Both the position numbers and the translations under genes were made by a program. 64,000 bases of DNA from a bacterium (lineage in GTDB: Bacteria; Sumerlaeota; Sumerlaeia; SLMS01; JAHLLQ01), in assembly GCA_020444065.1 (NCBI GenBank), contig JAHLLQ010000010.1:11677-75676 (forward strand), written 5' to 3'. Under the pieces are notes generated by a model. The model ran no database searches. It saw nothing but the letters and a program-made list of their open reading frames with translations, and had not been told where the DNA came from. Positions 1 to 4,172 of this stretch are shown here, piece by piece. How positions within the stretch are numbered: position 1 is the stretch's first letter; each line of letters opens with the position of its first letter.

Positions 1-134
1 ATCAGCCGCGGGGTGGGAACGAGCGCTTTGTACTTCCGCTGGAACTGCCGGCCGGAGATTGTGCTGGCGACGTTGCACGTGCCGAGGTAGGGGGGCTGGA
101 CTTTCCTTGGGCAAGGAGTAGGGACATTGTTACG

Positions 135-1175
135 TTGAGAGATTCTGAAGCCTGTCGAAGCCCCTCTCGCAAACGTCTTTTAGGGCTTGAAGCTCCTCGG
201 CGGCAGAAGCGATTGTTGAATTGTGGATGTACCATGAGACGCAATTATGACTGGGATGTTTGTGCGATGCTGGTTGACCAGTCACAAGGCATTGACAAGA
301 CACGGCTTGCAGCGATTTCCGCGCTATTCAGCGCGGGAGTTTTGCGCAGATTGATGCAGCCCAGCCCAAATGAAGGCCTTTGTCGGCTCGTCCAGCAATC
401 AGGCCTTTCCTCAGCGCTTGGACCCGATGCGCCTCTGGCCGATTTCCTCGAGGCGGCTCATAGAGTTCTTGAGAGGCCCGCCTATCGAAATGAATACACC
501 TACAAATCCGCTATCACACAGAAGCTGCTTCTGGGTCGCCACTCCTTGAAAACGGCTACTCTGTTGAGCGAGTTTCGAGTCCGAAATTCCGTGGCAGACC
601 TAGTAATATTGAATGGTACATCGACGGTCTACGAGATAAAATCTGAACGTGATTCCTTAGACAGATTGTCGGGACAGTTGAGAGATTACCAGGAGGTCTT
701 CGCCAACACCTACGTTGTCACCGGCCCCTCACGAAGAAATCAAGTGTTGGAATTGCTCCCCTGTGGCGTCGGACTCCTAATACTCACTGAAAGAGGCACC
801 CTCTCACGAGCGCGCGCTGCGATCTGCGGAGCAGCCAGCATCAATCCAAGGACTATCTTCGATTCCATCCGAACGCAAGAAGCAATGGAAGTGCTTCGAA
901 TGTGCGGGAGGCCGGTGCCTGATTTGCCAAATACGAGAATACGATCGGCGCTTGCAGAGGCCTTTACGGACATAGAGCCTATCGAATTGCATCGGGCTGT
1001 TGTTTCCGTTATGCGCAAGACGCGAAGTTCGGAGTCTCTGAGAGAGGTCCTCTCCCGCCTGCCTCGTTCCTTACATGCTTTCGCGCTTTCCGTGAGAATG
1101 CGTAGACAGGACAAGACGCGGCTACTCCAGGCAATGAAATTGCCGCTGAAGGAATATCTGAAGAGGAGACTGTAA
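135..1175 (+). CDS. PD-(D/E)xK nuclease-fold protein, sce7726-like; first gene of a 3-gene operon. True start may be ATG at 234 (gives ~314 aa)
   Basis: 346-aa ORF. Core motif VADLVILNGTSTVYEIKSERD fits D-x(n)-E-x-K of restriction-endonuclease-like fold. Stop overlaps next start (TAATG at 1173-1177). Region GC visibly lower than rest of window. Confidence 0.55.
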   Translation: MRDSEACRSPSRKRLLGLEAPRRQKRLLNCGCTMRRNYDWDVCAMLVDQSQGIDKTRLAAISALFSAGVLRRLMQPSPNEGLCRLVQQSGLSSALGPDAPLADFLEAAHRVLERPAYRNEYTYKSAITQKLLLGRHSLKTATLLSEFRVRNSVADLVILNGTSTVYEIKSERDSLDRLSGQLRDYQEVFANTYVVTGPSRRNQVLELLPCGVGLLILTERGTLSRARAAICGAASINPRTIFDSIRTQEAMEVLRMCGRPVPDLPNTRIRSALAEAFTDIEPIELHRAVVSVMRKTRSSESLREVLSRLPRSLHAFALSVRMRRQDKTRLLQAMKLPLKEYLKRRL

Positions 1176-2140
1176 TGGGTATCTACTACCCGTACTACCG
1201 AGGGAAGCAGTTCGAACTGAGCTCAATCCGCGAATGCGCCGAGATTATGGCCACCTGTGGATTCGTTCCCATTATCGAGCCCGTACGAGAATCCACCAGG
1301 GCGCTAGAGCGGACACTGCGAGCCGTTGCCGATTTTGGGGGACAAGCGATCGTTATCTTGAATCCAGTGCATGGGGAGCGAATGGATGATCAGGAATCCA
1401 CTCTTCGCCTCCTGCGTTCAATAGATACCAGAAGCGGTGGACTCGTGGTTTGTGGATTCCTGCTCACTGGCGACACGGCACTGGATCACATAGAGGAACT
1501 CGTTCGATCTGCACGTGATTTGCCAATCGCGTTTATTCACTATGGTTTTGGGTCTCCCATGGAGTTGTCAGGACTAATAAACAGAATCGCACCAGGCTCT
1601 ATTCAGATCTTCGAGGATCAGCATTGTGGAATGCTGTATCGGAGACATTTCCGAGACAAGGAAATCAGAGTTCTTCTGCATGATGGCTTCGTGAGGCGCC
1701 AGCGAAATAGCGATTATCCTCCAAGAGACTTCTTTTCAGAACTGCATCTTACATATCCCGACCAAGGAGCCACGGGCTTTGGGGACTTCTTGATCGTCGG
1801 AGATGAATACTCGGATGGCGGCGGGCCAGCCTATGCGGTGACAATTCACATTTCATACATTGACCGGACTCAGGAAGACCAGATGTATGTATCCCACTTC
1901 ATGTCTCATCGTCGGGATGACCCGACAGATCCGGCAGGGAAATTCGCCGAGGCCTTGCATGAGTTGATGTCTGAATTGGATAGACCCAATTGCCAAATCT
2001 ACGACACAGAAGCCATGAGAGAATTTCGAGACCTACACACAAGGGGCCACTTCCCCGGACTTGGTTATGTCAAGAAGCTCTCAATGAACCACCATGTCCA
2101 GACACTTGCCGGATTCTTTAGAGGGGGCACCACGCGATGA
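1175..2140 (+). CDS. T4 Beta_protein-family protein (sce7725-like), function unknown; second gene of operon
   Basis: 321-aa ORF. N-terminus MGIYYPYYRGKQFELSSIRE matches the characteristic Y-x-P-x-L/Y-K/R-x-K-x-G-E-x-x-A/S-L start of the Beta_protein/sce7725 family. ATGA overlap with downstream gene at 2137-2140. Confidence 0.6.
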   Translation: MGIYYPYYRGKQFELSSIRECAEIMATCGFVPIIEPVRESTRALERTLRAVADFGGQAIVILNPVHGERMDDQESTLRLLRSIDTRSGGLVVCGFLLTGDTALDHIEELVRSARDLPIAFIHYGFGSPMELSGLINRIAPGSIQIFEDQHCGMLYRRHFRDKEIRVLLHDGFVRRQRNSDYPPRDFFSELHLTYPDQGATGFGDFLIVGDEYSDGGGPAYAVTIHISYIDRTQEDQMYVSHFMSHRRDDPTDPAGKFAEALHELMSELDRPNCQIYDTEAMREFRDLHTRGHFPGLGYVKKLSMNHHVQTLAGFFRGGTTR

Positions 2141-3168
2141 AGTGCTGCCCAAATTGCATCGGGGACACTTGGATTGAGGAGGAGATGTCGTACATCTGGT
2201 CGGAGCAAATGGACAAATGCGACTACTGCGATAGAGAGAATGTCCGGGTTTTTGATCCCATTCTGATGCGGAATTGCTTTGAGTTGGTTCTTTCGGCCTA
2301 CCGGAAAGACAATGGCGGAAGACCGATTCTCGAACTGCTCATGGATGACTGGGCTCTGTTTCCCCAACTCCCACCCGATAGAGCGACGGCATTGCTCACC
2401 GAAGTCCTGGATGATCAAGCGATTGGGGTTGATACGTACATACCGCGGGATTCGTTCTCATCGAATAAGATTGAGGCGTGGGAAGAATTGAAGGTCGAAC
2501 TCAAACATAGAAATCGCTTCTTTCCAGCCTCTCGTATGGACCACGATAGGCTCCGGAATTTACTAGACTTTCTAATTCTGCAAGACAGTCATCCGTCACG
2601 AACATGGTTTCGCGCGCGGCTGCAGGCTGGTACTGCTGCCTACTCCGAGTCAGAGATGGGTGCACCACCAGAGGATACAGCATCGCATGGCCGTGCCAAT
2701 CCGGCGGGAATTCCATACCTTTATCTGGCTTCAGAACCCGAGACTGCGCTTTCTGAGATTCGTCCCCATGTGGGAGACTTGGCAACGGTTGCCAATGTGG
2801 CACTGAGAAAGAGACTCAAGATAGTCGATCTTCGTCATCCTCGGAAGACGGTTTCTCCACTCTCGGTGACAGATGAATCGGAGGTCGCGCAGTTGAGAGT
2901 GGATATCGGCTTTTTGGAGAAACTCGGAGAGGAATTATCACGGCCTGTCCTCCCGAATGTGGCTGCTATCGACTACATTCCTACGCAGTATCTCTGCGAG
3001 TTGATCAAGACGTTCCATTTCGATGGCGTGATGTATGCCAGTTCTGTTGGAGAAGGTGACAACTTAGCCCTTTTTGAGCCTGAAGCTGCTGTCTCGGAGA
3101 TCAACAATCCAAAGACATACCAAGTAATCCGCGTGTCCGTTGATGCATCGCCAGTCTCATCTTTGTAG
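2137..3168 (+). CDS. Zn-ribbon N-terminal domain (HEPN/RES-NTD1-like) fused to RES-domain toxin-like protein; third gene of operon
   Basis: 343 aa. N-terminal CPNC...CDYC zinc ribbon. RES hallmarks: HGRANPAGIPYLYLASEPETALSE (R..E), and YIPTQYL...FDGVMYASSVGEGDNLALFEP C-terminal block typical of RES (PF08808). Confidence 0.72.
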   Translation: MKCCPNCIGDTWIEEEMSYIWSEQMDKCDYCDRENVRVFDPILMRNCFELVLSAYRKDNGGRPILELLMDDWALFPQLPPDRATALLTEVLDDQAIGVDTYIPRDSFSSNKIEAWEELKVELKHRNRFFPASRMDHDRLRNLLDFLILQDSHPSRTWFRARLQAGTAAYSESEMGAPPEDTASHGRANPAGIPYLYLASEPETALSEIRPHVGDLATVANVALRKRLKIVDLRHPRKTVSPLSVTDESEVAQLRVDIGFLEKLGEELSRPVLPNVAAIDYIPTQYLCELIKTFHFDGVMYASSVGEGDNLALFEPEAAVSEINNPKTYQVIRVSVDASPVSSL

Positions 3169-3260
3169 GGGGACTCCTTCAATAAGGCAGATGACCAGAC
3201 AGGCAGATATGTGCTCCAACATCTATCGGCATCTCCAGTGGCAGTGAATTAATCCAGCTG

Positions 3261-4172
3261 TTACCGGCATGTTCCAGCCGATTCGGACAGATTCTCAATC
3301 AGTCCAATCAATTCCAAAGTTGAACACAGAACTCCAATGGCGGCATCAGGGGGGGCGCCTTGTTTGTCCCATTGTTTGAGGGGGGCGGTTTCGGTGGCGG
3401 TGAGGAGTTGGAGGGCCTCGGCGCGGGTTTCTGGATTTATCATTTCCGGCGGGGCGGTTTCGAGGACCTGGCGCGTGAGGCGGGTGAGGCGGATCATGCG
3501 GTGGAGTGGGAATTTGGTGCGGCGGGTGGCGTTGTCGACGTCGATGCGCATCCAGTCGCCGGCGGGTTGAATGACGATGTTCTCGAGATCGAGGTTGCGT
3601 GTGTAGAAGCCTTCGCGTTCGAGCATGGTGACGGTGCCGAGGACTCGGACGAGTTCGGTGAGGCAGTTGTCGCCGGGGCCGGTTTTGTTAATGACGTTGG
3701 CGAGGCCGGTGCCGGGTAGGAAGGGCATGATCTCAATGACCCAGTCGTGCGATCGGTCGGGGAGCAGTCCGAGCGCAAGGAACGGGCAAAGCGGAAAGTC
3801 GGGATTGGCGGCGCGCTCGCGGTCGATGGCTTTGGCCAGGTCGGTGAGGACTTCGACGCGGTCTTTGGGGTCGCGGAATTGCGCGAGCTTGAGTGCGACT
3901 TTGCCGGTGATATCGGAGTCGGTCTGCCAGGTGATGCCGAGAGCTTTTTTCCAATCGCCGCGGAGTTCGGTTTCGTAGACGGCGCCGACATTGCCGACGG
4001 CGATCATGTTCGGGGCGTGGAGGATGTCGCCGAGTTCGCCAACCATGGCGGTGACTTCGTTTGCGAGGCGACGTTTTTTGGCGCTGCGCGAGTTGTTGTA
4101 ACGCACGGTGGCGTAGGCGGCCCCGACGAGGATGATAACGACGACGGCGAAGAGCAGCGGAAGGGGTGGCAA
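3261..4172 (-). CDS. N-terminally membrane-anchored protein-kinase-like protein with degenerate catalytic loop (possible pseudokinase)
   Basis: 303 aa. N-terminal TM helix PLPLLFAVVVIILVGAAY. Gly-rich-loop-like VGNVGAVYE. TRNLDLENIV where canonical kinases have HRDLKPENIL. RIDVDNA in DFG position. Confidence 0.45.
   Translation of the reverse strand: MPPLPLLFAVVVIILVGAAYATVRYNNSRSAKKRRLANEVTAMVGELGDILHAPNMIAVGNVGAVYETELRGDWKKALGITWQTDSDITGKVALKLAQFRDPKDRVEVLTDLAKAIDRERAANPDFPLCPFLALGLLPDRSHDWVIEIMPFLPGTGLANVINKTGPGDNCLTELVRVLGTVTMLEREGFYTRNLDLENIVIQPAGDWMRIDVDNATRRTKFPLHRMIRLTRLTRQVLETAPPEMINPETRAEALQLLTATETAPLKQWDKQGAPPDAAIGVLCSTLELIGLIENLSESAGTCR

Follow-up and report, generated by a model that had tools for sequence, protein, structure and literature searches.

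A conserved cII–sce7725–RES gene trio combining parts of two anti-phage systems: a candidate NAD+-depleting conflict module

Two described anti-phage systems come closest to the locus reported here. The gop-beta-cII system protects Escherichia coli against lambda and P1, its Gop protein being toxic without Beta, and gop/beta have been called toxin-antitoxin (TA)-like (Rousset et al. 2022, PMC9122126); a phage accessory gene sets off cell death through this system (bioRxiv 10.1101/2023.04.06.535777). The aRES proteins, with 300–600 amino acids (aa) and a RES domain joined to PF18870 (HHsearch probability > 80%), likewise protect E. coli and deplete NAD+ to nicotinamide and ADP-ribose-1''-phosphate (ADPR-1''-P) (Osterman et al., bioRxiv 10.64898/2026.01.28.702374). 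Parts of both systems are joined in three adjoining genes near the left end of a 64,000-nt stretch of DNA from a bacterium of the Sumerlaeota (contig JAHLLQ010000010.1, positions 11,677 to 75,676), which was analysed as a whole and is called the window below. Gene 1 belongs to the family of phage P4 cII, gene 2 to the sce7725 family, and gene 3 encodes a RES-domain protein. This trio is a strictly conserved, co-evolving unit. The interpretation we favour, with moderate confidence, is that it represents a self-contained, horizontally mobile conflict module, most likely an abortive-infection anti-phage system acting by depletion of NAD+. The genes and their main features are located in the window as follows.

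135–1175, + strand: gene 1, sce7726/phage P4 cII family, putative RecB-type PD-(D/E)xK nuclease (NCBIfam, PADLOC, BLASTP)
1163–1177, + strand: gene 1/gene 2 junction, GAGGAG at 1163–1168 and stop/start TAATG at 1173–1177, 1-nt overlap (read from the sequence)
1175–2140, + strand: gene 2, sce7725 family, predicted TIM barrel (NCBIfam, structure model)
2121–2140, + strand: gene 2/gene 3 junction, Shine-Dalgarno-like GAGGGGG at 2121–2127 and start/stop ATGA at 2137–2140, 4-nt overlap
2137–3168, + strand: gene 3, predicted aRES-type effector of 343 aa (Pfam, AlphaFold2 (AF2) model)
2143–2229, + strand: zinc-ribbon motif CCxxC...CxxC of gene 3 (C3, C4, C7, C28, C31), all five cysteines invariant in 40 homologues
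2659–3102, + strand: RES catalytic domain of gene 3, residues 175–322, with R186, E207 and S302 (Pfam coordinates; conservation)

The three open reading frames (ORFs) are co-oriented and overlapping, with GAGGAG as the Shine-Dalgarno sequence before gene 2. Their coordinates and both junctions had been given in a first-pass annotation made from the letters alone and were confirmed by reading the sequence; the motifs quoted there were found as well, with little or no variation among homologues. Gene 3 homologues from Pseudomonas, Halioglobus and a metagenomic genome are all located behind a Phage_P4_cII gene and a gene for a protein of about 313 aa. A scan with the sce7725 profile, using one genome per species, revealed relatives in at least 336 species. 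The best 80 of these 336 loci and six loci of gene 3 homologues (n = 86) were annotated with hidden Markov models. In 81 of the 86, cII, sce7725 and RES are co-oriented and abutting. The four loci lacking RES are all cut by contig ends, and every one of the 82 uncut loci carries RES adjoining sce7725; one locus has no cII ORF. The pairing of sce7725 with sce7726, stated in the first-pass annotation, is real, and the conserved neighbourhood extends to the entire trio.

Hosts of the trio comprise Alpha-, Beta- and Gammaproteobacteria, Actinomycetota, Acidobacteriota, Planctomycetota, Thermodesulfobacteriota, Hydrogenedentota and Nitrospinales. A Moraxella plasmid with 33% sce7725 identity and a faecal phage-like contig with 27% still show the linkage. 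A fourth conserved gene was not found, the largest cluster of flanking genes occurring in 4 of 80 loci. The pairwise-identity matrices of the three proteins correlate with r = 0.88–0.92 (Mantel p = 0.001), and we therefore conclude that the proteins were inherited together. Mean pairwise identity is lowest for cII (0.53), followed by RES (0.585) and sce7725 (0.61). In three loci (L023, L035, L085) RES is split into two ORFs by a frameshift, and in another (L049) sce7725 is shortened. These look like decaying copies of the trio, and the RES frameshifts fit a costly toxin. An sce7725 gene with a strong match (E = 3e-101) and no RES was observed on the Enterococcus faecium plasmid p114-2 (L089, 4309–6516) and in a record named 'Listeria phage LM 4-14-1' (L091). 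There, the upstream gene encodes a 229-aa protein not recognised as sce7726 and a GNAT acetyltransferase gene follows downstream; this locus may be a different Firmicutes variant.

Gene 3 matches the Pfam family PF08808 RES with 67 bits (E = 2.5e-18; gathering score 23.2). The match to PF18870 HEPN_RES_NTD1 (NTD1 in the following) is weaker, with E = 0.0021 and 18.8 bits under a gathering score of 27.4, and covers positions 3–127 of 131 in the profile. Among the 40 members of the gene 3 family, RES was matched in all 40 and NTD1 in 15 at E < 0.01, with a best value of E = 9e-6. Taken together with the five invariant cysteines, these results uphold the first-pass description of gene 3 as zinc ribbon, NTD1 and RES, the NTD1 part at sub-threshold score. 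R186, E207, S302 and also Y300 are invariant among the homologues. The AF2 model (pLDDT 89.4) finds its best folds in the Protein Data Bank (PDB) in MbcT (6fkg), the NAD+ phosphorylase toxin of M. tuberculosis, and in the RES protein of P. putida (6gw6/9r35). Weak matches of the RES fold to PARP, tankyrase and cholera-toxin ADP-ribosyltransferases were obtained as well. From these sequence and model comparisons we infer that gene 3 cleaves NAD+ and is toxic.

In its predicted NTD1 and RES architecture, its length and its R/E/S triad, gene 3 resembles the aRES proteins. It also resembles stand-alone RES proteins of enterobacterial plasmids (457 aa), with 23–27% identity (E = 1e-16 to 1e-17) across some 90% of its length and a common N-terminal CxxC...CxxC. 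Four of six queried trio-bearing strains are listed in Table S2 of the aRES study, as matched by strain name and not by gene identifier. The RES proteins of the trio are thus probably counted in the aRES catalogue already, with the operon unnoticed, as a domain-based census would probably do. In contrast to a stand-alone aRES gene, however, gene 3 begins within the stop of gene 2. Its orthologues have sce7725 immediately upstream in 82 of 82 uncut loci, and then cII in all but one, and it co-evolves with both partners. Relatives of gene 3 were observed in 327 plasmid records, mostly of conjugative plasmids. In IncF plasmids of E. coli and K. pneumoniae (L094 and L095, 3986–5359 in each) the 457-aa zinc-ribbon/RES protein stands alone, its gene occupying a fixed site between a parA/parB-like pair and umuDC; it has no NCBIfam match.

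With RES-Xre, MbcT-MbcA and NatT-NatR, gene 3 shares the RES fold and the triad, these systems also giving the best solved structural matches, and NAD+ phosphorolysis is predicted for it from the model. However, gene 3 is twice as long as a TA toxin of this type (about 150–190 aa), the additional N-terminal half consisting of the zinc ribbon and NTD1, and instead of an Xre/COG5654 antitoxin its companions are two proteins of unrelated families, each about 300 aa long. Membership in the RES-Xre TA family was rejected: the NF049844 Res_ParT_toxin model gave 13 bits against a cut-off of 110, and neither partner has a helix-turn-helix (HTH) or Xre match.

The ORF of gene 1 can be read from a TTG at 135, and an ATG at 267 would give a protein of 302 aa. 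The latter is probably the true start, since homologues have 295–300 aa and align from about residue 45–57 of the long ORF. Gene 1 scores 160.3 bits (E = 4.6e-47, residues 118–297) on NCBIfam NF033832 sce7726_fam, well over the curated cut-off of 70 bits and in agreement with the first-pass assignment. P4 cII reaches 151.4 bits on the same model, which places both proteins in one family. Similarly, gene 1 matches the PADLOC model PDLC02989 'cll' (E = 2e-19), 'cll' in PADLOC being the cII gene of satellite phage P4, and BLASTP aligns it to P4 cII with 36% identity over an 86-aa core (E = 2e-12). Its homologues are annotated with Pfam PF26915. In an alignment of 27 sequences of the family, P4 cII included, E146, D155, E167, K169 and Q181 are invariant and Y185 is near-invariant (at least 90%). 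The resulting series E...D...ExK...QxxxY is the one known from RecB/Cas4-type nucleases. By these conserved motifs gene 1 is a putative nuclease of the PD-(D/E)xK fold. Of the first-pass proposal, the catalytic motifs thus stood the comparison, while profile and structure tests gave no confirmation of the fold. A Pfam scan of the 27 family members yielded a match in one of them, a weak PDDEXK_3 (E = 0.1). A PDB profile search yielded no real solved relatives of genes 1 and 2; a match to CagY was discarded as a helical-repeat artefact.

The definition of gop-beta-cII in PADLOC and DefenseFinder includes the cll component, which is present in the trio. Its Gop and Beta components were not found there, gene 3 is unrelated to Gop, and no small Gop-type ORF with two transmembrane (TM) helices occurs. 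Outside P4, the conserved arrangement consists of a small Gop-like ORF overlapping with Beta (PF14350) and of a cII gene (PF26915) convergent to both; the Gop-like proteins, of 109–161 aa, combine two TM helices with a coiled coil. References for the P4 system, Rst_gop_beta_cll, are Rousset et al. 2022 and Ghisotti et al. 1990. In Pseudomonas aeruginosa (L096–L098) canonical gop-beta-cII was seen to adjoin genes of a Pf-type filamentous prophage (Phage_Coat_B, DUF5447) and a HigB/HTH pair. Like gop-beta-cII, the trio is a three-gene module on mobile elements, and gene 1 and P4 cII share the invariant E...D...ExK...QxxxY. Both systems have a partner of about 310–360 aa translationally coupled to a toxic effector, toxicity being a prediction in the case of the trio, and sce7725 and Beta carry the motifs YYP..R..E, [FY]GD and Y..GG..Y in the same order. 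In contrast, the effector of the trio is a 343-aa RES protein of the NAD+ phosphorylase type in place of Gop, the middle gene belongs to sce7725 and not to the Pfam family Beta_protein, and the cII protein has about 300 aa compared to 223–264 aa in the P4 type.

Gene 2 covers the full length of NCBIfam NF033831 sce7725_fam with 299.2 bits (E = 4.6e-89; curated cut-off 60 bits), so that the first-pass assignment to sce7725 holds. About 70 positions are invariant in this family. As many of them are polar, which is an enzyme-like pattern, gene 2 is probably an enzyme, and the structure model predicts a TIM barrel. The first-pass annotation had further placed gene 2 in the Beta_protein family and named phage T4 as the source of its prototype. 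The prototype in fact stems from satellite phage P4, and the placement in PF14350 was rejected. No Pfam match to gene 2 was obtained at E ≤ 1, PF14350 was absent from the gene 2 homologues listed, and BLASTP of gene 2 against P4 Beta gave nothing. The PADLOC beta model was not matched either, the sole PADLOC match being a spurious JetA (E = 0.05), and P4 Beta had no match to sce7725_fam at E ≤ 10. Comparison of two alignment sets with hhalign gave probabilities of 0.2–1.8% with P = 0.28, and P = 0.027 for the broader alignments.

Under relaxed settings, hhalign aligned sce7725 and Beta collinearly over the full length, pairing the N-terminal YYP..R..E, the central [FY]GD and Y..GG..Y. Distant homology of the two families is hence possible by sequence, a lead rather than a finding. 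Among the top 50 matches of the gene 2 model in BFVD, none was named P4 Beta. The only strong match in this search, with E = 1.8e-9 and TM 0.65, was to an uncharacterised protein (A0A5J6TRS2, 379 aa) from Gordonia phage Powerball; a tblastn search with P4 Beta did not reach Gordonia phage Powerball.

The trio constitutes the complete gene content of an insert of approximately 3.1–3.2 kb, whose extent and possible borders are given below.

91–3260, no strand: whole insert, three genes only (contrast in GC content, GC content at third codon positions (GC3) and GC skew with the flanks)
87–97, + strand: left copy, GTAGGGGGGCT, of a direct repeat of 11 nt, situated where the upstream host ORF has its stop codon (repeat search)
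3165–3175, + strand: right repeat copy, GTAGGGGGACT, which matches the left one at 10 of 11 bases and overlaps the stop codon of gene 3 (repeat search)

The trio genes exhibit a GC content of 0.51–0.53 (0.50–0.53 for the insert), a GC3 of 0.53–0.56 and a GC skew of about 0, compared to 0.60–0.64, 0.73–0.79 and +0.2 to +0.3 for the host genes to the right. Bases 1–134 of the window are already host-like (GC 0.62, GC skew +0.28), and both compositional edges are therefore situated within the window, the left one at about 91–135 and the right one at about 3170–3330. The trio DNA is a horizontally acquired insert; the low-GC island that had been noted by eye proved real and sharper than described. 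The two repeat copies, with the consensus GTAGGGGG(G/A)CT, are 3078 nt apart and flank the trio at both compositional edges. They could be an insertion scar or a chance finding, which is common for repeats this short; their position is suggestive. Neither the predicted empty site nor the left flank had an exact match in the metagenome contigs searched, promoter and terminator scans gave nothing above chance, and no tRNA gene was found near the insert. An upstream ORF enters from the left window edge and ends with a stop codon at 88–90. Its tail in window 1–90, running off the edge, reads ISRGVGTSALYFRWNCRPEIVLATLHVPR and then the stop. By eye it resembles a TetR-type helix-turn-helix with an early stop, so that the insert has possibly truncated a regulator gene.

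Related trios were found on conjugative and mobilizable plasmids, on a Ralstonia megaplasmid and on an integrative and conjugative element (ICE) of Salmonella houtenae. Single loci adjoin Thoeris ThsA/ThsB, a SEFIR/TIR protein, type IV secretion system (T4SS) and relaxase genes, HEPN_Toprim_N, a Tn3 transposase or a GIY-YIG nuclease. The flanks were sampled as the 150 nearest flanking ORFs, some of them spurious, and give a qualitative picture rather than an enrichment measured against a background rate. The commonest Pfam families among them are phage integrase (5) and resolvase (4); TrbI and transposases occur too, and PADLOC revealed a type I restriction-modification (RM) methylase, KwaB (Kiwa), MADS, AbiD, SoFic, PD-T4-6 and PDC-S21/S32/S35. 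The defence and mobile-element surroundings expected from the first-pass annotation are thereby supported in a qualitative manner. In the ICE of Salmonella enterica subsp. houtenae (L093, 3876–4841) a caspase-like 'ICE-like protease p20 domain' gene was observed about 2 kb upstream of the trio.

In the abortive-infection system we propose, the RES domain of gene 3 would cleave NAD+ by phosphorolysis to nicotinamide and ADP-ribose-1''-phosphate, and the loss of NAD+ would starve both the infected cell and the phage. This chemistry follows from what is established for RES proteins and from the aRES preprint. Genes 1 and 2 would be obligate partners, with translational coupling fixing the proportions in which they are made. 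They would correspond to the cII and, probably, the beta components of P4 gop-beta-cII, and would hold the NADase inactive until infection, when they would release it. Gene 1, with its putative nuclease fold and intact active site, evolves fastest of the three and probably senses phage DNA or a phage protein. Gene 2 may neutralise the effector, as Beta does with Gop, or may make or destroy a small molecule. The Gop/Beta precedent, the translational coupling, the co-evolution and the faster divergence of cII suggest these partner roles.

Several points weigh against this proposal. NADase activity, toxicity, phage protection and the assignment of sensing and restraining partners are all predictions from sequence and analogy. 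aRES works as a single gene and is described as not operonic (bioRxiv 10.64898/2026.01.28.702374), so RES defence does not as a rule require partners, and what the partners do in the trio is conjectural. Homology of sce7725 to P4 Beta is not established, and the analogy with a Beta that neutralises its toxin may fail in this case. The gene order differs as well: cII, sce7725 and RES are co-directional in the trio, whereas gop and beta face a convergent cII in the P4 type. PADLOC v2 matched gene 1 only, giving no valid model match for gene 2 or gene 3. Many neighbours of related trios are ordinary metabolic genes. The sce7725 genes beyond the closest 80 of 336 may have other partners, and in the Enterococcus/Listeria copy sce7725 occurs without RES.

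RES toxins are classical type II TA toxins. The trio could accordingly be a tripartite TA or addiction module, in which post-segregational killing by RES stabilises plasmids, ICEs and islands, one or both partners act as antitoxin, and a dedicated anti-phage role does not exist. The closest structural matches, MbcT-MbcA and RES-Xre, are type II TA systems, the genes are as tightly coupled as in TA operons, RES pseudogenes occur, and the trio is located on conjugative and mobilizable plasmids, a megaplasmid and ICEs. In addition, gop/beta themselves have been called TA-like (Rousset et al., PMC9122126). Yet there is neither an Xre/HTH antitoxin nor a relevant Res_ParT_toxin score, the two partners, each of about 300 aa and with conserved sites like those of enzymes, do not resemble small labile antitoxins, and many trio copies are chromosomal and beside defence genes. 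Proteins with NTD1 and RES moreover defend against phages without an antitoxin (bioRxiv 10.64898/2026.01.28.702374). We regard a pure addiction module as unlikely, noting that TA and abortive-infection roles are compatible and not mutually exclusive. Far less credible is an arrangement of two systems side by side, namely a stand-alone aRES next to a separate cII/sce7725 pair with no functional coupling. It would agree with the activity of aRES on its own (bioRxiv 10.64898/2026.01.28.702374), the clustering of defence genes in islands, the RES-less sce7725 of the Enterococcus/Listeria records and the other partners of cII in gop-beta-cII. Island neighbours, however, usually reshuffle, as the variable flanks show, while the trio keeps one order and orientation in 81 of 86 loci from many phyla and the linkage is kept down to 27% identity. 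The overlap of the gene 2 stop with the gene 3 start, a co-evolution of r ~0.9 and an insert in the window holding exactly the trio genes likewise speak against it, and we consider it extremely improbable.

In principle, RES could also spend NAD+ on modifying one particular target, for example through ADP-ribosylation of a nucleic acid or protein, and the partners would process this target, as in a modification/repair-like conflict system. The weak fold matches to PARP, tankyrase and cholera-toxin ADP-ribosyltransferases point in this direction, as does the fact that both partners appear enzyme-like rather than passive inhibitors. But NAD+ degradation is the activity of the closest folds and of all RES proteins characterised (MbcT, Xre-RES, NatT, aRES), and the R/E/S triad is intact, which makes target modification very unlikely. 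A broader idea is put forward as a rather doubtful possibility. The cII-family nuclease and the Beta/sce7725-type TIM barrel might form a portable sensor/regulator chassis that has captured at least two unrelated killers, the membrane protein Gop in the P4 type and an aRES-type NAD+ phosphorylase here, with the barrel being an enzyme for a small-molecule signal or an NAD+-derived product and not a simple antitoxin. If true, this chassis would represent a new abortive-infection signalling logic and would explain the mechanism of gop-beta-cII.

The trio is less novel than the first-pass annotation, which called it undescribed, had implied, as it joins parts of two known anti-phage systems: cII is known from the validated gop-beta-cII (PMC9122126) and the gene 3 architecture from aRES. 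The obligate three-gene operon, on the other hand, was not described in the literature searched on sce7725/sce7726, PF14350/PF26915, gop-beta-cII and RES defence. It links gop-beta-cII and aRES, which have so far been treated apart. Presented as a single-gene system, aRES nevertheless contains a large multi-phylum subfamily that is locked to two partner genes. Since PADLOC v2 matches cII alone, tools of this kind would miss the trio or label it partly. With a predicted NADase activity, which is easy to assay, the trio could serve as a tractable model for the control of an effector by cII-type and Beta/sce7725 proteins. The trio also occurs in enterobacteria (Salmonella houtenae ICE, Cedecea, Kluyvera, Pantoea) and in Pseudomonas, and a direct test in E. 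coli is thus realistic.

To the right of the insert, ordinary genes follow, among them lpxD, moaE and genes for a peroxiredoxin and a CHASE2 cyclase. From 3300 to 64000 of the window the GC skew of the + strand is unusually strong and sustained, with +0.17 to +0.3 over tens of kb, whereas the insert lacks it. An ORF of 303 aa with host-like GC separates the insert from lpxD on the - strand (3261–4172), for which only weak kinase-like matches were obtained (Kdo kinase, E = 0.011; PHROG 'kinase', E = 0.3). Its coding strand opposes the strong + strand GC skew of the region.

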